DNA of 64,000 bases from a virus (lineage: Duplodnaviria > Caudoviricetes), in the IMG/VR virus record IMGVR_UViG_3300032007_001727; one strand, written 5' to 3'. A program made the translations under genes and the position numbers. Shown one piece after another: positions 16,412-24,306 of the stretch (position 1 is its first letter; each line of letters begins with the position of its first letter). The notes under the pieces were generated by a model. The model was not told the origin of the DNA, did no database searches, and saw nothing but the letters and a program-made list of their open reading frames with translations.

Positions 16412-17218
16412 ATGGAAAACAAAGAAAAGGATTACAAAGAAGAGAGGTTTGAGTTTACCATTTATGTAAACGATAACATCATTTGTAAGAGGAACTTTAG
16501 GATTTACAACTACATTGAGAACAGTATGCAGTCCATAGAGTTCAAGGACAAGGTTGATGAGATTGTACGGATGATTGACAATGACTTGAAATCCAAGAGC
16601 CGTGTATACACTTGGTTCTACTACAATCCGGATGACTTGATTGAGGGTGATGAGTTCGATTCACCATTGATAGACCCTTGGGTTTGCACGTTTAAGATTG
16701 TTATCTCAGATAACAAGAATGACGTTATTACGAAAATTTGGGACGGATACGCCTACCCAAAGGCTGTGCGTGACAAAGTTGATTTAAGTAATAAGAACGT
16801 TAAGGTGATGAGTGACGGGCAGTTATACGTATATGACAAGGATAGTTTCTTCAAGGCAAATGAGGGTAGGCTTTCTTTTGAGCACGAACTCCTAAAGGCC
16901 ATGATTATGGACAAACAAGATGTTTTATTACAAATCACCAAGAAGATTTGCGAGGCTTGTTCACCTTCAAAGGATGAAATCAAGGAAGTGAACCAAAGGG
17001 GTCATTTCGATACAAGGGACAATACAAAATACTTGGTAATGAAATACACTTTGGTGGATGAATATGGAAATGACGAGGTAACCAAGAAGGCTACCGGGGA
17101 AAAGTTAAAGCCAAAGAGGTATGCTTATAGTTTGCAGTTGGCAAATAAGAAATTAGAGAAGGATTGGGAGAAATATACACAGAAGAAGACTGCGAAATAT
17201 TTGAAGGAATGGTTTTAG
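16412..17218 (+). CDS. Hypothetical protein upstream of the helicase
   Basis: 268-aa ORF. Confidence 0.7.
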   Translation: MENKEKDYKEERFEFTIYVNDNIICKRNFRIYNYIENSMQSIEFKDKVDEIVRMIDNDLKSKSRVYTWFYYNPDDLIEGDEFDSPLIDPWVCTFKIVISDNKNDVITKIWDGYAYPKAVRDKVDLSNKNVKVMSDGQLYVYDKDSFFKANEGRLSFEHELLKAMIMDKQDVLLQITKKICEACSPSKDEIKEVNQRGHFDTRDNTKYLVMKYTLVDEYGNDEVTKKATGEKLKPKRYAYSLQLANKKLEKDWEKYTQKKTAKYLKEWF

Positions 17219-17241: not shown

Positions 17242-18645
17242 ATGACTCAGAAAAGAAATGACTTAGGTTATCTTGGTGAAGAATTCCAATACCGCTTGAC
17301 ACACGAGTTCATGGAAAACCACACTTTTTTCGAAGACCTAAACTGTATCGTTGACCAAAATATGTTCACTGACCCCAACCTTAAGGTCTTTATCGGTGTT
17401 ATGAAGAATTATTACAACACAAACGGTGTTGTGCCTTCATATGAAATGATGGACGTTGAGTTGAGGAACACGTCACATTCTGAAAAGGAATTGGAAACCT
17501 TTGTCGCCGTATTGGAAAAGGTACGCAATACCAAGGAGGACGGGTCAGAGAGGATAATGGAGTTGGCCGAGAAGTTCTTCAGACAGCAGAATATCGTCAA
17601 GACCGCTAACGAAATACTTAAAGTGGCTAGCAACGGTGACATCAATGAATACGAGAAATGTGTCAACTTGTTGAATGATGCCATGACGAAGGGCGTTCAC
17701 AATGATTTCGGTGAATGCGTATTTGACCACATAGATGAGGTGTTGTCGGATGATTACCGTGAGCCTATTCCAACCGGAATTGATAAAATAGACGAGACAC
17801 TAGAAGGTGGGTTGGCAAAGGGTGAATTGGGTGTGATTATAGCACCTAGCGGCATCGGAAAGTCATCATTGACCACTGCAATGGCATCACATGCAGCCTT
17901 AAGCGGCAAGAAGGTGTTGCAGATAATCTTTGAGGACCGAATAAAGCAGATTCAGAGGAAGCACATCGGAAGACTTGCGAATATCGAGGCAAAGGACTTA
18001 TCAAAGAAGGAGAATATCGATAAAGTTAGGGAAGTCATTGCCAAATACGAGGCAGACGGAAAACTTCAGAATAACCTTAGGATTGTCAAGTTCCCTAGCG
18101 GAGAGAAGACCGCAAGACAGATAAAGTCCTTCATACAAAAACTCTCAAATAGCGGATTTAAGCCGGATTTGGTCATAATAGACTATTTCGAGTGTCTTGC
18201 ACATGAGCCGGACAAGGATTCGTCGAATGAATTTGAGAAAGAGGGAAAGACAATGAGGTTCTTTGAGGCAATGGTCGGTGAATTGAACATCGCGCTGTGG
18301 ATTCCTTCACAAGGAACGAAGGACTCGATAAACCTAGAGTTGATTACGATGGATAAGATTGGCGGTTCGGTCAAGAAGGCTCAGATTGCACATATAATAT
18401 TGTCAATTGCTAGGACTGTGGAGGATATTTCAAACAACAAGGCAACGATTGCAATACTTAAGAACCGTGCCGGTGCTAGCGGAAAGATATTCAACAATGT
18501 AGGCTTTAACAACGGAACATGCCGCATTACAACCGACAATGTTGACGAATCTGACAGTTTATTTGAACTTCAAAAGAAAAAAGAGGACAATAGGGCACTA
18601 GTTGCTGCTGAAATTTTTAAGAGCACTCGTGAAGGAAAAAAATAA
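17242..18645 (+). CDS. dnaB: Replicative DNA helicase, DnaB/gp41-like
   Basis: IPTGI..ID..L.GGL..GEL, APSGIGKS Walker A, VIIDY, SQ, LKNR. Confidence 0.9.
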   Translation: MTQKRNDLGYLGEEFQYRLTHEFMENHTFFEDLNCIVDQNMFTDPNLKVFIGVMKNYYNTNGVVPSYEMMDVELRNTSHSEKELETFVAVLEKVRNTKEDGSERIMELAEKFFRQQNIVKTANEILKVASNGDINEYEKCVNLLNDAMTKGVHNDFGECVFDHIDEVLSDDYREPIPTGIDKIDETLEGGLAKGELGVIIAPSGIGKSSLTTAMASHAALSGKKVLQIIFEDRIKQIQRKHIGRLANIEAKDLSKKENIDKVREVIAKYEADGKLQNNLRIVKFPSGEKTARQIKSFIQKLSNSGFKPDLVIIDYFECLAHEPDKDSSNEFEKEGKTMRFFEAMVGELNIALWIPSQGTKDSINLELITMDKIGGSVKKAQIAHIILSIARTVEDISNNKATIAILKNRAGASGKIFNNVGFNNGTCRITTDNVDESDSLFELQKKKEDNRALVAAEIFKSTREGKK

Positions 18646-18668
18646 AAAAAAAATTATGTTTGTACTCA

Positions 18669-18710
18669 TTGGGCTATCAGTGGGTTTTCGACCGATAGCC
18701 CCAATTTTTT
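18669..18710 (+). terminator. Intrinsic terminator after the helicase
   Basis: gggctatc...gatagccc stem followed by a T-tract. Confidence 0.7.
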
Positions 18711-18831
18711 GAATTTTTTATGTTGAATTTTATATGATTTGGTTATATTTATTTTTGACATCAGATGTAAAAGAAAATAAAAAAATGGTTAACCGAATCA
18801 ATAAAAAAATTAATTTACAACACTATTTGTT

Positions 18832-21039
18832 ATGGCAAAAATCAATGATGATTTACTGAAATATTTTGATGGCGATGAAATGGCATCAAATGTTTGGCTG
18901 AATAAATATGCAATGAGGGATGAAAACGGTGAATTAATAGAATCGACCCCGGATGACATGCATAGAAGAATGGCAAAGTACTTTGCCGATGTTGAGGAAA
19001 AGTATGAGTTTAACGAAGAGGAAAACGTTAAACTGAAATTGAGTGAATATGGCTACAACAGAGGCAAACTTACCGAAGAAAAAATCTATTCTCTTTTCAA
19101 GGACTTTAAATATATTGTTCCGGGCGGTTCTGTCATGTGTGGTTTAGGCTCACCGCTAGCAATTAGCCTCTCTAATTGCTGGGTAATTGATGGTCCAGGT
19201 GACAGTATAGATGACATCTTTAGGGTTTGCAATGAACAGTCTCAGTTGTTTAAGAGAAGAGGTGGAAACGGGTTCGATATATCGAAGTTGAGACCAAAGG
19301 GTGCGAAGGTAAGCAATTCTGCAAAATATTCCACCGGTGCCGTATCCTTCATGGACTTGTTCAGCAACGTGACAAATACCATCGCCCAAAGCGGAAGAAG
19401 GGGTGCCCTTATGCTTTCAATGCACGTGGAACATCCGGATGCGGAGGAGTTTATTGAGAAGAAGCAAGACCTTTCAAAGGTTACCGGTGCAAATATCTCG
19501 TTGCAGATAGGTGATGACTTTATGAATGCCGTGGAGAATGATGAGGACTTTATTCAGAGGTGGCCAATCACTTGTGAGGTCAACGTTGACCCTAGTTGGG
19601 AATATGACACCTTGTACGAGTCCAAGGATTCGAACGGTAAGACTTGCTATTTCAAGAAGGTAAAGGCGAAGAGGTTGTGGGATAAATTAATCCATTGTGC
19701 TTGGAATACGGCCGAACCCGGCATCATCTTCAAGACAAACCACTATGAATATTCACCGGACGGTGTGTATGATGAATTCCGTGGCAGTTCCACGAATCCG
19801 TGTGGAGAGATTTTTATGCATGAGGATTCTTGCAGACTCATCCACGTAAACCTTTCTTCTTTTATTGATGACGAGTATTCTGAGAATGCAAAGGTGAACG
19901 ACGAGAAGTTGTATGAAGTGTTCTATGAGGCCACTAGGTTAGGTGATGATTTGGTTGATTTGGAAAGGGATGCCATTACAAAGATTCTCAATAAGATTGA
20001 AAAAGACGGTGACAAGAATAATAATGAATATAAACTGTATAGCCGCTTACTTAAGAATACATTAGCCGGAAGAAGGTGCGGCGTTGGATTCTTCGGATTG
20101 GCTGACGCTGTCGCAAAATTGGGCTTTAAGTTTGATTCTGATGAGAGCCTTAAGGCAATTAACCATATGATGAGGATTATGTTCGTTGCAGAAATTGACT
20201 CAGAGATTGACATGTCAATCACAAGGGGTAGTTTCCCGAACTATAATCCGGAATTGGAGAAGGCCGGAAACAGATGGTATAACCACTTGAAGGATGATTT
20301 CAAGCACTTATACGACAGAATGATGAAATATGGCAGGAGAAACGTATCATTCAGTACGGCAGCACCTACCGGTTCTGTTGCGATGCTTGCACACTGCTCT
20401 AGCGGTATAGAACCCATATTTATGCCATTCTACACAAGGAGGGTTAAATGCACGACACCAAACGACAAGGTTGACTTTGTTGACAAGGACGGTGAGAAGT
20501 TCACGGAATATATTACGGTACACCATCCTTTGGAAGAGTGGGCAAAGAACACATTGAACGTCGATACAAGCGAATTGAAGGTAAAGGATTGGCAAGACAT
20601 ATATGAGAAGTCACCTTGGTATAAGTCAACCGCAAACGATATCGATTGGGTAAAACGTGTTAAAATCCAAGCAATATGCCAGTGCTATGTGACACATAGC
20701 ATTTCTAGTTGCGTTGTTAAAGATACATTCATTGAACTTGAAAATGGCGGCTACGCATATATTGATGAGTTATGTGACTTTTCAGCCATAAACGAAGGGG
20801 AATTTAAGGATAACACATCGTTTGAAACATTGGTTAAGACTTGTGACGGAACTAATAATAGGATTAAGTCATTCTACAATAACGGAGTAAAAGATGTGTT
20901 TGAGTTAAAACTTACGAATGGGTTATCAGTCGAGACCACGTCAAATGAACGTTTCATGGTCTATAACGATGAAAAATCAGAATTTGATTGGAAATATCTT
21001 TATGATATTAAAGAGGGTGACATAATAAAAATTCAATAA
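18832..21039 (+). CDS. nrdJ: Class II (B12-dependent) ribonucleotide reductase, N-terminal part fused to an N-intein (intein 20710-21039)
   Basis: SNCWV, RRGA, AEPG, TNPCGE, APTGS, SSGIEP; HSISS|CVVKDT junction; Hint blocks A/B; then a stop codon. Confidence 0.9.
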   Translation: MAKINDDLLKYFDGDEMASNVWLNKYAMRDENGELIESTPDDMHRRMAKYFADVEEKYEFNEEENVKLKLSEYGYNRGKLTEEKIYSLFKDFKYIVPGGSVMCGLGSPLAISLSNCWVIDGPGDSIDDIFRVCNEQSQLFKRRGGNGFDISKLRPKGAKVSNSAKYSTGAVSFMDLFSNVTNTIAQSGRRGALMLSMHVEHPDAEEFIEKKQDLSKVTGANISLQIGDDFMNAVENDEDFIQRWPITCEVNVDPSWEYDTLYESKDSNGKTCYFKKVKAKRLWDKLIHCAWNTAEPGIIFKTNHYEYSPDGVYDEFRGSSTNPCGEIFMHEDSCRLIHVNLSSFIDDEYSENAKVNDEKLYEVFYEATRLGDDLVDLERDAITKILNKIEKDGDKNNNEYKLYSRLLKNTLAGRRCGVGFFGLADAVAKLGFKFDSDESLKAINHMMRIMFVAEIDSEIDMSITRGSFPNYNPELEKAGNRWYNHLKDDFKHLYDRMMKYGRRNVSFSTAAPTGSVAMLAHCSSGIEPIFMPFYTRRVKCTTPNDKVDFVDKDGEKFTEYITVHHPLEEWAKNTLNVDTSELKVKDWQDIYEKSPWYKSTANDIDWVKRVKIQAICQCYVTHSISSCVVKDTFIELENGGYAYIDELCDFSAINEGEFKDNTSFETLVKTCDGTNNRIKSFYNNGVKDVFELKLTNGLSVETTSNERFMVYNDEKSEFDWKYLYDIKEGDIIKIQ

Positions 21040-21051
21040 TTCTTTAAAAAA

Positions 21052-21112
21052 ATTTATCTCATTGTATATTTATATATATAAATAATTTTAATAAATATGC
21101 AATGAGATAAAT
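21052..21112 (+). promoter_or_regulatory. 22-bp hairpin covering the endonuclease translation-initiation region, with TATTTATA in its left arm
   Basis: atttatctcattgtatatttat (21052-73) pairs with ataaatatgcaatgagataaat (21091-112) with one G:U; ends at the ATG. Confidence 0.8.
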
Positions 21113-22339
21113 ATGAATGAAAGTCAGAAAAAGAGGATACAAAAACTAATAGAAATGGGTTTGTATCATGAGCCAAAAATAATAAAGGGCGTATGTAAAT
21201 TATGTGGAAAGGAATATGAATATGACGAGAACAATAAAGTAGTTAGACAATACTTTACTAACGGCTTTTGTTGCAATAAATGTTATCAAGATTCCGGTTT
21301 AAAGTTAATTAATAAAATTAAAACGACACTGACGAATGCAAATATGCCGTTTAATGATGAAAACATCTTAGAAGTTTTTTCAGAGTATCAATCAAATAGA
21401 ACTAAAAAGTGTGCTGACACTTGGAGGAAGACAATGGTTGAGAAATATGGAACAGACTATGCCACCAAGAGAGGAAAAATGGGATGGGATGGCCACAAGA
21501 AGAAATTTTTAATTGAAAACAACATAATTTCAGAAGATGATTTTTCAAAATTAAGTGAGGAGGAAATTGATGACTTATTTATTAGTAACTTCAACAAAAT
21601 AACCAAACATGGTGAACACGTTGTTAATGGTAGAAAAAGTAAATACGGAGAAGATTACAAGAAATCATTCCAAGATGCACTAGTAAAAAGCGTAACCAAC
21701 CTAATGGAGAAGAAATACGGGAAAGAATATTTAGATGGACTATCTGATTCTGAATACCAAGAGGTTTACAATGAATGTTCAACTGAAATAAATTCGAAGA
21801 AGGTTGTAAAGGATAGAATTGAATGGAAGAAGAGTACATTGTTGAACCACGGCTTCGATAAAGATTCATTGGACAAATGCAGTTCAGATGAAATTGAAAA
21901 GTTCTATTCAGAATATTTGTCAAAGAGAAAGACAAAACTTGTTTGTTCCGAAAAGAATGGGTATAAACATTCTGAAAAGGGTTGGTACAATTTTGATAAG
22001 TGGGATAAGTTTTTCTACCGTAGTAGTTGGGAAAAGCGATTATGTGAAGAATTGGACGCTAATTGTGATTTAATTGAAAATGTCATGGTTCCGGAACCAA
22101 TCTATTATAAGTTAAATGGTGTTACACATGCCTATTTTTGTGACTTTGAAATTTTATTTAAAAATGGTTTCAGACTATTCATAGAAGTCAAACCGGAAGG
22201 AAAATTAAAAGAATTAGTAAATGAGTGTAAAATAAATGCGGCAAAGGAAAAATGGGGTGACTCATTTATTGTTGCAACTGAGCATGAAATTTTTTCAAGT
22301 GATTTAAAAAATTTATTAATGAAATATGGAAAAGATTAA
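21113..22339 (+). CDS. Free-standing endonuclease (TnsA-like PD-(D/E)XK) between the split-intein halves
   Basis: N-terminal CKLC...CCNKC zinc motif; C-terminal YRSSWE...Y.CDF....IEVKP...KINAA. Confidence 0.75.
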   Translation: MNESQKKRIQKLIEMGLYHEPKIIKGVCKLCGKEYEYDENNKVVRQYFTNGFCCNKCYQDSGLKLINKIKTTLTNANMPFNDENILEVFSEYQSNRTKKCADTWRKTMVEKYGTDYATKRGKMGWDGHKKKFLIENNIISEDDFSKLSEEEIDDLFISNFNKITKHGEHVVNGRKSKYGEDYKKSFQDALVKSVTNLMEKKYGKEYLDGLSDSEYQEVYNECSTEINSKKVVKDRIEWKKSTLLNHGFDKDSLDKCSSDEIEKFYSEYLSKRKTKLVCSEKNGYKHSEKGWYNFDKWDKFFYRSSWEKRLCEELDANCDLIENVMVPEPIYYKLNGVTHAYFCDFEILFKNGFRLFIEVKPEGKLKELVNECKINAAKEKWGDSFIVATEHEIFSSDLKNLLMKYGKD

Positions 22340-23348
22340 AGAAATTGAGTCTATTTGTCTAAGTGATGAAAGAATACCGTTTGAATTTAGAAAAAATGGT
22401 GACTCTGTGAAAGATTTTCTTGAAACCATTAAGAACAATGGTTTTGTTGTGACGAACAAGGATGTTAAAAGACTCATGAAAATGTATGACACAAAAAACG
22501 AAACATTTTCAATTGTTGAAAACATTTCTTATGTTGGGGTGAAGGAAACCGTTGATTTGGAGGTTGAAAATACTCATAGTTATGTAGCAAATGGAATAGT
22601 TGCCCATAATACAATAAATCTTCCGAACGACGTGAAAGAAAGCGAGGTGGCGGAAATATATAGGGAATCTTGGAAACAAGGACTTAAGGGTATTACCGTA
22701 TATAGGGATGGATGCAGAAGCGGTGTCTTTGTATCAGTTGACAAGAAGGACACACCGAAGAAGGACTTGAACCTTGAACTCATCGAGAGCGGTACCGCAA
22801 AGAGGAGGCCAAAGACATTGGAGGCCAAGATTATACGCTTCAGCAACAAGGGTGAAAAATGGGTAGGCATAATAGGAATGCTAGACGGAAAACCGTATGA
22901 ACTCTTCACCGGAATGCTTGATAAACTGAATATCCCGAATTGGGTTGACAACGGTTCCATCATCAAGAACTATGATGAGATTGAGACTGACGGTGAAGTG
23001 AAGAAGAAATCACGATACGATTTCTGCTATAATGACAAGGACGGGTATAAGGTATGTATCGAAGGTATATCTAGGATATTTAACCCCGAGTTTTGGAATT
23101 ACGGCAAACTAATCAGCGGCTTGTTAAGGCATAATATGCCCATACCTTATATAATAAAGGTGATTTCAACCCTTAAGTTGGATGATTCCTCCATAAACAC
23201 TTGGAAGAACGGTGTTGTTAGGGTTCTCAGAAAGTTTGAAGACTCTGCTGAATTGGAGGGTGAAAAATGCCCGGAATGTGGTGGAAGGCTAGTTAGGGAC
23301 GGCGGATGCATTCACTGCGTTGACTGCGGATACAGTAAGTGTTTATAA
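22326..23348 (+). CDS. nrdJ: C-intein (22326-22610) fused to the NrdJ C-terminal part (TSCPD-like domain, zinc ribbon)
   Basis: VDLEVENTHSYVANGIVAHN|TINLP (blocks F/G, His-Asn, +1 Thr); GLKGITVYRDGCR; CPECG...CVDCGYSKC. Confidence 0.9.
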   Translation: MEKIKEIESICLSDERIPFEFRKNGDSVKDFLETIKNNGFVVTNKDVKRLMKMYDTKNETFSIVENISYVGVKETVDLEVENTHSYVANGIVAHNTINLPNDVKESEVAEIYRESWKQGLKGITVYRDGCRSGVFVSVDKKDTPKKDLNLELIESGTAKRRPKTLEAKIIRFSNKGEKWVGIIGMLDGKPYELFTGMLDKLNIPNWVDNGSIIKNYDEIETDGEVKKKSRYDFCYNDKDGYKVCIEGISRIFNPEFWNYGKLISGLLRHNMPIPYIIKVISTLKLDDSSINTWKNGVVRVLRKFEDSAELEGEKCPECGGRLVRDGGCIHCVDCGYSKCL

Positions 23349-23361
23349 AAACTGATTTCTC

Positions 23362-24306
23362 ATGTTAATGGATATTATTTTGAATAAACCGTCAGTTAAC
23401 ATCAACTTGGATTCTGACGGTTTATTTTCCTACCTATTTTTGAAATTGGCTTCATATAAGGGTCATATAAGCGGGTACAGCAACAGCAACGACCTAATCT
23501 TAAGTGAATACCCAATTGATGATTTATGGAGTGATTTCTATGTTGACTTGTTCACGCCGAAGCCGAATGCCACAACAATTGACCAACATGTCATATCTAA
23601 CTCAAACGGTATTTCCTTTCCGGAGACAAAAATAAATCCTCATATATTGATTGAGAACCATATTGCAAATAACCCCAAAAGTTATTGCGGCAAGTTCCCG
23701 TTTTCAACATCAATATTCATGTTGGGTCTCTGTGAAAGGGAAGGAAAGATTTCAGACGATGTCGGTCTTTTTGAAAACATTGACTATAAGAATAATTTTT
23801 TTGGTGGCTATGGTATTACATTGGCAGATTTGCTGCTACGTGCCGACGGATGCCTCCTAAACCGTTGCCAATATGAAAGGAATGTCTCATATTGGAAAGA
23901 CAAGATGATTGAGTTCTCCAACGGCGGTATTAATACCGAAAGGGTATTGGAATACTTGGTAAGGATGCCGAGGGAAGAGGCACAAGTAAAACACGGTATT
24001 ATAAGCAACGGTTACTTTAACTATGGGCTTTCAAAGGACGGCGGCTATAACGGACGCATTGACTTGGAAGAAAATCTTAGGCTGATAGTGAATTTGTTTA
24101 GGTCGATTTCAAAATACTTGAACGTTCTAGTAAAGGAATGCGAGACTACATTATATAAATATATAGGGGTGGTTCGTGATGCAAAATCAGACTTGACGGA
24201 AGATTTGTCATCGTTTGACACATATGCCTTCACTAGGAATAATCAGATAAAATATACAACAGACTTTAAATGTTGTGATAAAATAACTTTTAAAAATTTT
24301 AATTAA
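23362..24306 (+). CDS. Putative DHH-like phosphoesterase
   Basis: DSDG, VDL, IDQH, INP pattern resembles DHH motifs I-III. Confidence 0.45.
   Translation: MLMDIILNKPSVNINLDSDGLFSYLFLKLASYKGHISGYSNSNDLILSEYPIDDLWSDFYVDLFTPKPNATTIDQHVISNSNGISFPETKINPHILIENHIANNPKSYCGKFPFSTSIFMLGLCEREGKISDDVGLFENIDYKNNFFGGYGITLADLLLRADGCLLNRCQYERNVSYWKDKMIEFSNGGINTERVLEYLVRMPREEAQVKHGIISNGYFNYGLSKDGGYNGRIDLEENLRLIVNLFRSISKYLNVLVKECETTLYKYIGVVRDAKSDLTEDLSSFDTYAFTRNNQIKYTTDFKCCDKITFKNFN

Follow-up and report, generated by a model that had tools for sequence, protein, structure and literature searches.

Fractured genes, in which a split intein interrupts the coding sequence and the two pieces flank a free-standing endonuclease gene, have been known since 2009 (Dassa, London, Stoddard, Schueler-Furman and Pietrokovski; PMC2677866). 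In this arrangement, a phage gene for a DNA-precursor enzyme is broken at the intein: the N-terminal half of the intein (N-intein) ends at a stop codon, a hairpin and a stand-alone endonuclease open reading frame (ORF) follow, and the 3′ end of the endonuclease gene overlaps the ORF of the C-terminal half (C-intein) by 6–69 bp, as found at 15 loci. A breakage without an intein is seen in phage Aeh1, where the large-subunit gene of the ribonucleotide reductase (RNR), nrdA, is broken by the free-standing endonuclease gene mobE, which overlaps the downstream piece, and the two pieces assemble without splicing (PMC3045599). For gut jumbo phages, the breaking up of genes by endonucleases and by proteins with intein domains has been described in general terms (PMC12880540).

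The nrdJ gene at positions 18832–23348 of the phage DNA analyzed here shares this structure. The DNA is a stretch of 64,000 nucleotides (nt) from the IMG/VR record IMGVR_UViG_3300032007_001727 (Duplodnaviria; Caudoviricetes), and this whole stretch is called the window; the record itself is partial (107 kb, 42% complete). A split intein with a free-standing endonuclease, a hairpin, and a 3′ overlap of 14 nt were all found in the window nrdJ. This makes the locus a fractured gene as defined by Dassa et al. 2009. An earlier sequence-only reading of this DNA, which had called it a fractured nrdJ, is supported, and the precedent that it cited, fractured genes with split inteins including nrdJ, is correct (PMC2677866). 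In our interpretation, to which we give a probability of roughly 0.8, positions 20710–22610 are a mobile cassette in a class II RNR gene, the two intein halves trans-splice, and the nuclease between them is most likely a homing endonuclease whose translation is limited by the hairpin. The variant is widespread and apparently undescribed, and what appears to be new in it is the insertion site and the nuclease family, while the intein chemistry is unusual.

The three ORFs at this locus and the hairpin are on the plus strand. The N-terminal NrdJ piece (18832–21039; 735 amino acids, aa) is composed of a 626-aa extein and a 109-aa N-intein. The N-extein (18832–20709) comprises the all-alpha domain and the larger part of the catalytic barrel (Pfam PF00317 and PF02867; the barrel match covers residues 114–626 of the piece) and ends with THSISS. 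The N-intein and its stop (20710–21039; Cys1 codon at 20710–20712, TAA at 21037–21039) contain blocks A, N2, B and N4. A very AT-rich gap of 73 nt (21040–21112) separates this stop from the ATG of the nuclease gene (21113–22339; 408 aa), and the C-terminal NrdJ piece (22326–23348; 340 aa) begins inside the nuclease gene, so that the nuclease stop and the C-piece ATG lie in a shared segment of 14 nt (22326–22339). The C piece consists of a 95-aa C-intein and a 245-aa extein and reads AHN/TINLP across their border. Within the C-intein, a predicted three-helix extension of about 55–58 aa (22326–22499), the first 14 nt of which form the overlap, precedes blocks F and G (22500–22610; His-Asn end at 22605–22610). 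The C-extein and its stop (22611–23348) extend from the +1 Thr (22611–22613) of TINLP to a Cys-rich zinc-finger tail. The sequence-only reading had already placed the break at HSISS/TINLP, and every coordinate in it is correct: the ORF list agrees with the break and, together with Pfam, with the stop-terminated 109-aa N-intein that starts with Cys1 at 20710, while the translation and Pfam agree with the 95-aa C-intein that ends with His-Asn before Thr. The overlap of the C-intein start with the nuclease stop, also proposed there, is the 14-nt segment given above.

Neither NrdJ piece alone should work as an enzyme. The closest solved relative of the N-extein is the B12-dependent RNR of Thermotoga maritima (NrdJ, 1xje; E 2e-43), and the alignment continues to the last residue before the break. 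The tail of the C-extein has six invariant Cys (residues 315–339 of the C piece), and such a Cys-rich C-terminal tail mediates turnover in class II RNRs (PMC5704485). The described inteins NrdJ-1 and NrdJ-2 adjoin the thiyl-radical Cys (PMC2677866), whereas in the window the thiyl-site motif NPCGE (residues about 322–326 of the N piece) is uninterrupted and the break occurs about 290 residues further on, at residue 626 (HSISS/T). Because the insertion site differs (the NrdJ-1 site being taken as stated in PMC2677866), the window intein is not an allele of NrdJ-1 or NrdJ-2. At one related locus (L002:2291–4930), the 879-aa N piece carries in addition a contiguous mini-intein at the thiyl-radical site (STNP/C...HN/CGE) with a canonical TPDH block B; the window nrdJ is without this type of mini-intein.

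The same split layout was found in at least ten independent assemblies (L001, L002/L003, L004, L008–L011 and L089/L090) from different samples, one of them labelled STEW19, and different assemblers, with nuclease identities of 33–73%. The full-length homologues of the nuclease are 31–73% identical, and every one of them whose neighborhood was read sits between an NrdJ piece ending with an N-intein and an NrdJ piece starting with a C-intein. These data bear on the view that the break is a misassembly or a frameshift, or that the stop, the gap and the nuclease ORF lie in a self-splicing intron whose removal would give a contiguous intein. Small group I introns are indeed numerous in related gut jumbo phages, where they break up genes (PMC12880540). 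Nevertheless, no Rfam family matched in 18500–23800 at E values up to 1, and group I and II introns are thereby rejected; the nuclease ORF fills nearly all the space between the intein halves; and in the C piece, conservation at the protein level begins with the first Met of its N terminus. As to an artefact, the same stop, gap, nuclease and overlapping start recur in assemblies from different projects. The assembly error that the sequence-only reading had named as a possible refutation is excluded by this recurrence and by the exact comparison of occupied and empty sites given below, and we regard this whole class of explanations as extremely unlikely. No contiguous intein was found at the same nrdJ site among proteins of 404–1287 aa.

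The sequence formed by joining the exteins, HSISSTINLP, is seen uninterrupted in intact NrdJ homologues, and a related phage contig, L091, allows the borders of the element to be defined. This contig carries an intact nrdJ (868 aa) in the same helicase–nrdJ order as the window. In the blastn comparison, window positions 18746–20708 align up to position 7877 of L091, and the alignment resumes from window position 22611 at L091 position 7879; the codons at the junction read HSISS/TVNLP. Because the DNA corresponding to 20709 and 22611 is directly joined in the empty contig, the inserted element is exactly 20710–22610 (1,901 bp), which comprises both intein halves and everything between them. Equivalent boundaries between occupied and empty states were found for L001 and its near-twin L092 (90.7% DNA identity downstream). 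In that pair, the 45-nt flanks of the site (L001 4561–4605 and 6586–6630) are 58% and 71% identical, as compared with 75–90% nearby, and the differences are synonymous, including swaps between the Ser codon families. This could reflect divergence of the target site, as seen in a single pair of sequences. The same pair shows two further peculiarities: the nrdJ of L092 has an extra insert of about 494 nt that is absent from L001, and both L001 and L092 are translated correctly only if TAG is read as Gln, while the window genes need no recoding.

The occurrence of the cassette among relatives was examined with an unrooted maximum-likelihood tree of 39 C-exteins (16 of the Thr-type split form, 5 of the Cys-type split form and 18 intact; P0189 and P0190, in which the motif is absent, and the partial L089 were omitted). 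Three pairs of occupied and empty sequences were found as sisters, namely the window and P0174, L001 and P0183, and L002 and P0186, with support of 100/99 or 95/83 in each case, and the well-supported branches force at least six changes between the occupied and empty states. The pattern suggests that the cassette was gained or lost among close relatives. Sporadic occurrence with exact element boundaries, as is expected of a homing endonuclease element, was thus observed.

Purifying selection acts on the two intein halves and on the nuclease. Relative to L089, the closest relative, the nonsynonymous divergence (dN) is 0.093 for the N-intein, 0.128 for the C-intein, 0.161 for the nuclease and 0.156 for the N-extein. 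Because the values of the intein halves are below that of the N-extein, the halves are at least as constrained as the enzyme itself. The ratio of dN to the synonymous divergence (dS) is 0.12–0.19 where it could be computed, which was for the C-intein only (0.12 against L089), dS being saturated elsewhere. These values also bear on the notion that nrdJ is a decaying pseudogene in a phage that relies on the host RNR or on another RNR. Both exteins are full length and conserved (dN 0.15, dS saturated), all the catalytic and zinc-finger residues are kept, and the split arrangement persists among sequences down to about 35% identity; decay of the gene is hardly credible.

The N-intein tail of the N piece matches the Pfam Intein_splicing family (PF14890) at positions 2–93 of 155 (28.9 bits), and residues 43–95 of the C piece match positions 101–155 (23.6 bits). 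A profile built from eight N-inteins retrieves the Mxe GyrA, DnaE and DnaB inteins of known structure (E 3e-6). Because the N-intein is complete, with blocks A, N2, B and N4, the intein is split at the canonical point of endonuclease insertion. When the eight N-inteins and eight C-inteins were aligned from end to end, Cys1, the block B Thr, the Gly-Asp of block N4, the block F Asp (D77), H94 and N95 were found to be invariant. Cys1 is likewise invariant in seven further clusters, and Cys1, the block B Thr, the block F Asp, the His-Asn end and a +1 nucleophile are kept across the eight loci and 18 further clusters. In the window intein, the features of class 1 inteins, namely Cys1, the block F Asp, the penultimate His and terminal Asn, and Thr at +1, are thus found together with the profile match. 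The one departure from class 1 is in block B, where Thr-x-x-His is replaced by T-S-N-E (Glu codon at 20947–20949). The Glu occupies the column of His75 of Mxe GyrA and of TKDH of DnaE. In all seven N-piece clusters with a break at SS/T, this TSNE is fixed, and Glu is also found in L009, whereas T-x-D-His is retained in the sister loci L008, L010 and L011. The intein is thus non-canonical in block B, at the +1 residue and in the architecture of its C half, and the same three traits, namely the block B Glu, the +1 Thr and a 95-aa C-intein with an extra three-helix unit, set it apart from the inteins of Dassa et al. 2009. A natural and evolutionarily maintained absence of the block B His in class 1 inteins is known from the Tko CDC21-1 type (cited in PMC6333167); those are contiguous archaeal inteins, while the window intein is split, comes from a phage, has Glu in place of His, and has sister lineages that keep the His.

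The likely splicing mechanism can be drawn from the conserved residues. The cassette is inserted in frame between the codons of Ser626 and Thr in the conserved HSISS-TINLP, and brings the stop-ended N-intein, an independently translated nuclease gene, and a C-intein with whose ATG the remaining part of nrdJ begins to be read. Two NrdJ polypeptides would be made separately, and one HINT fold would form when the 109-aa N-intein associates with blocks F and G of the 95-aa C-intein. A thioester would form at Cys1 and be transferred to the hydroxyl of Thr+1, the terminal Asn would cyclize, and an 871-aa NrdJ with a native peptide bond would be released. By this reaction, the barrel would regain its last segment together with the Cys-rich reducing tail at the C terminus.

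Several points weigh against our interpretation. The trans-splicing, the cleavage by the nuclease and the target of this cleavage are all inferred. Each intein half alone stays under the PF14890 cut-off of 35.8 bits, which is set for a whole intein. Thr is the least reactive nucleophile at the +1 position. The alternation of occupied and empty sites fits repeated precise loss as well as repeated gain by homing, since the unrooted tree cannot separate gain from loss, and the tree rests on 236 kept columns. Finally, the block B His, which is Glu in the window intein, has been called essential in many inteins, although it is naturally absent in a very small subset (PMC6333167).

The loss of this His throughout the Thr+1 clade is also the first point in favor of a different explanation, in which the NrdJ pieces assemble non-covalently and never splice, the intein halves being docking domains. 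For the non-covalent reassembly of an RNR, the NrdA of phage Aeh1, split by a homing endonuclease and held by interaction domains, is a precedent (PMC3045599), and the three-helix extension of the C-intein could add docking affinity. Docking, however, would not need Cys1, the terminal Asn, the penultimate His, the block F Asp and the +1 nucleophile, which are invariant across about 25 diverged sequences. Moreover, inteins without the block B His, a small natural group, are known to splice (PMC6333167). The position of the break also speaks for splicing. In most members of the family, including the window, the break occurs at HSIS(S)/T-x-NLP with Thr at +1, whereas a monophyletic sister clade breaks one residue later, at HSISKT/CNLP, with Cys at +1. 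Such a shift of the register by one residue that places Cys at +1 and so keeps a +1 nucleophile is hard to explain unless the splicing chemistry is used. Docking without splicing is therefore quite improbable in our judgment, and trans-splicing by the two halves is preferred. Because of the natural Ser/Thr junction, the absence of the block B His and the extra folded unit of the C half, the two halves are also a candidate orthogonal pair for trans-splicing. They represent a widespread natural split intein under selection, and thereby a natural test of the first splicing step without the block B His.

The three-helix extension deserves attention of its own. Its helices are predicted at residues 2–12, 25–38 and 45–55, with an AlphaFold predicted local distance difference test score (pLDDT) of 80–90 over residues 1–55, and R16, P18 and R22 are invariant in the eight loci. 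A search of 1.84 billion representatives finds the extension in at least 18 clusters (50% identity). As the true start of the C piece, a later Met (residue 51 or 53) was also considered, which would give a C-intein of about 43–45 aa; this candidate was rejected because residues 1–50 are conserved as protein in all eight loci, the first Met is aligned, and R16, P18 and R22 are invariant. A Foldseek search with the C-piece model gave nothing meaningful, residues 59–159 being poorly modelled as expected for a C-intein without its partner, and a look-up of the extension in a structure atlas gave sub-threshold leads only (an HTH_psq-like model with a template modelling (TM) score of 0.52), which are not relied on. 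In comparison with long multi-intein proteins, there was a hint of likeness to the segment that precedes block F in contiguous LAGLIDADG inteins, but because these alignments are dominated by blocks F and G, an origin of the extension as an endonuclease remnant is a guess only. A bolder proposal is that the Thr+1 clade is a mechanistically distinct split intein, in which the block B Glu activates the N-terminal scissile bond and the three-helix unit is a functional module and not a leftover of an internal endonuclease domain of the ancestor. We hold this proposal to be doubtful at present; under it, the unit would be, for example, a high-affinity clamp, a DNA- or nuclease-binding element, or a switch for the timing of splicing.

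The 408-aa protein encoded between the intein halves had been called TnsA-like in the sequence-only reading, and the structural comparison leads to the same assignment. An identical protein is encoded on a 366-kb contig. It is composed of an N-terminal zinc ribbon with four Cys, a helical region of about 230 residues and a C-terminal TnsA-like PD-(D/E)xK domain (residues about 290–408). In Foldseek searches with the AlphaFold model (mean pLDDT 84.7), the best matches are TnsA structures (1t0f and 1f1z; probability 1.0, E 7e-4). The match to the TnsA-like N domain family (PF08722) is 26.3 bits, just below the cut-off of 26.5, and that of a 154-aa homologue in L033 is 61.9 bits. Searches of the sequence against solved structures gave a weak rubredoxin-like match of the zinc ribbon and otherwise noise. 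The putative catalytic residues E307, D344, E358 and K360 form a motif, SWE...(P)D...E-x-K, that is invariant in 13 of the 13 homologues. With TnsA, a subunit of the Tn7 transposase, the nuclease thus shares the restriction-enzyme-like fold and the E, D, E-x-K pattern of the active site; in contrast to TnsA, it ends with the catalytic domain, lacking the TnsA C-terminal domain, and has the zinc ribbon and helices at its N terminus. No TnsB or TnsC partner genes were found in the surveyed loci, and the neighbors of the window nuclease are the nrdJ pieces.

Among homing endonucleases, the Vsr-like (EDxHD) family with I-Bth0305I is similar in organization (PMC3239194). These enzymes are also modular, with a restriction-fold catalytic domain and a separate N-terminal region, and they also occur in phage genes of DNA metabolism and as free-standing genes between split inteins. 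Their active site, however, is His-based, whereas that of the window nuclease is a Lys-based PD-(D/E)xK site, and no match in sequence or fold was found between the two. The endonucleases of Dassa et al. 2009 are GIY-YIG or Vsr-like, in contrast to the canonical PD...ExK of the present TnsA-like enzyme. No paper that links a TnsA-like nuclease with split inteins was found in one literature library, which is not proof of absence, and the family is apparently reported here for the first time in this role. It adds a third nuclease family, the TnsA-like PD-(D/E)xK nucleases, to the fractured-gene arrangement.

As for its function, the nuclease would most likely act as a homing endonuclease that cuts the intein-less nrdJ of co-infecting relatives, and repair would copy the whole cassette. 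The matched empty and occupied alleles of close relatives define the presumed homing site to the base. It might instead be not or no longer homing, as a phage nuclease that has been domesticated or a passenger without activity, in a cassette that is only inherited vertically. The catalytic domain alone (about 155 aa) is indeed common in viral contigs in other contexts, and the persistence of both intein halves in L010, where the nuclease gene is broken, shows that a split intein can outlive its nuclease. The full-length form, with the zinc ribbon and the helices, was seen nowhere but in fractured nrdJ genes, between the intein halves, however; its catalytic residues are invariant and its dN is low; and occupied and empty alleles alternate among close relatives. 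We consider the loss or lack of homing to be unlikely, though less so than docking without splicing, and a homing role is favored. As a separate observation, nucleases of 154–156 aa with the catalytic domain only are encoded directly upstream of an intact nrdJ in three viral contigs, L033 (3935–4399), L027 (4058–4519) and L073 (3923–4390). The same family may here occupy an intergenic position beside the same target gene.

A hairpin with a stem of 22 bp is located at 21052–21112, and its 3′ arm ends one base before the nuclease ATG. Its predicted RNA folding energy is −23.9 kcal/mol (z −5.2), and none of 200 shuffled sequences folded as well. A hairpin that abuts or covers the nuclease start was found in seven of the eight related loci in spite of the turnover of the sequence, and compensatory changes in the stem are seen among the window, L089 and L002. 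The overlap between the nuclease gene and the C piece is conserved as well, with −1 to 23 nt among the relatives. The 5′ arm of the window hairpin carries the motif TATTTATA at 21067–21074. This motif matches 14 times in the window, as compared with 7.4 ± 2.4 expected, and none of 100 shuffles reached 14. Seven of the 14 copies are correctly oriented and precede an ORF start by 19–53 nt, and TATTTATA is a candidate promoter element of the phage; its other sites include 27739, 29408, 33004 and 62718 on the plus strand and 61614 and 62675 on the minus strand. The scans for sigma-70 promoters and terminators and for the Bacteroidota −7 motif TANNTTTG gave results not above chance. The hairpin over the start codon most likely keeps the translation of the nuclease low on read-through transcripts. 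By analogy with the T4-type scheme, the read-through RNA would hide the nuclease start, and a transcript from a promoter inside the hairpin would free it. This scheme of a hairpin and an internal promoter is based on the intron endonucleases of T4.

The division of nrdJ goes further in some relatives. In L004 and in a longer contig of the sample ERZ17292905, nrdJ is present in at least four ORFs and is cut by three split inteins; the breaks hold intervening ORFs of 250, 458 and 418 aa, of which only the last encodes the TnsA-like nuclease, and no Pfam match was obtained for the C-terminal 303 aa of the 458-aa ORF. In L010 (3–5795), nrdJ is fractured twice: the first break holds a Vsr-like nuclease (PF03852, E 1e-4), the second holds the TnsA-like nuclease, itself broken into decaying ORFs of 132 and 189 aa, and the middle nrdJ piece also carries a contiguous mini-intein. 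The nrdJ of rumen and gut phages can thus be present in two to four ORFs, which annotation pipelines will miscall. Two observations concern other genes. In the window, the ORF at 16412–17218 (268 aa) matches the TNF family domain weakly and below the threshold, with 22.1 bits (E 1.5e-4) where the cut-off is 23. In L091, a TnpB/Cas12f-like gene (1022–2179; OrfB_IS605 and Cas12f1-like_TNB) is located near the helicase–nrdJ block.

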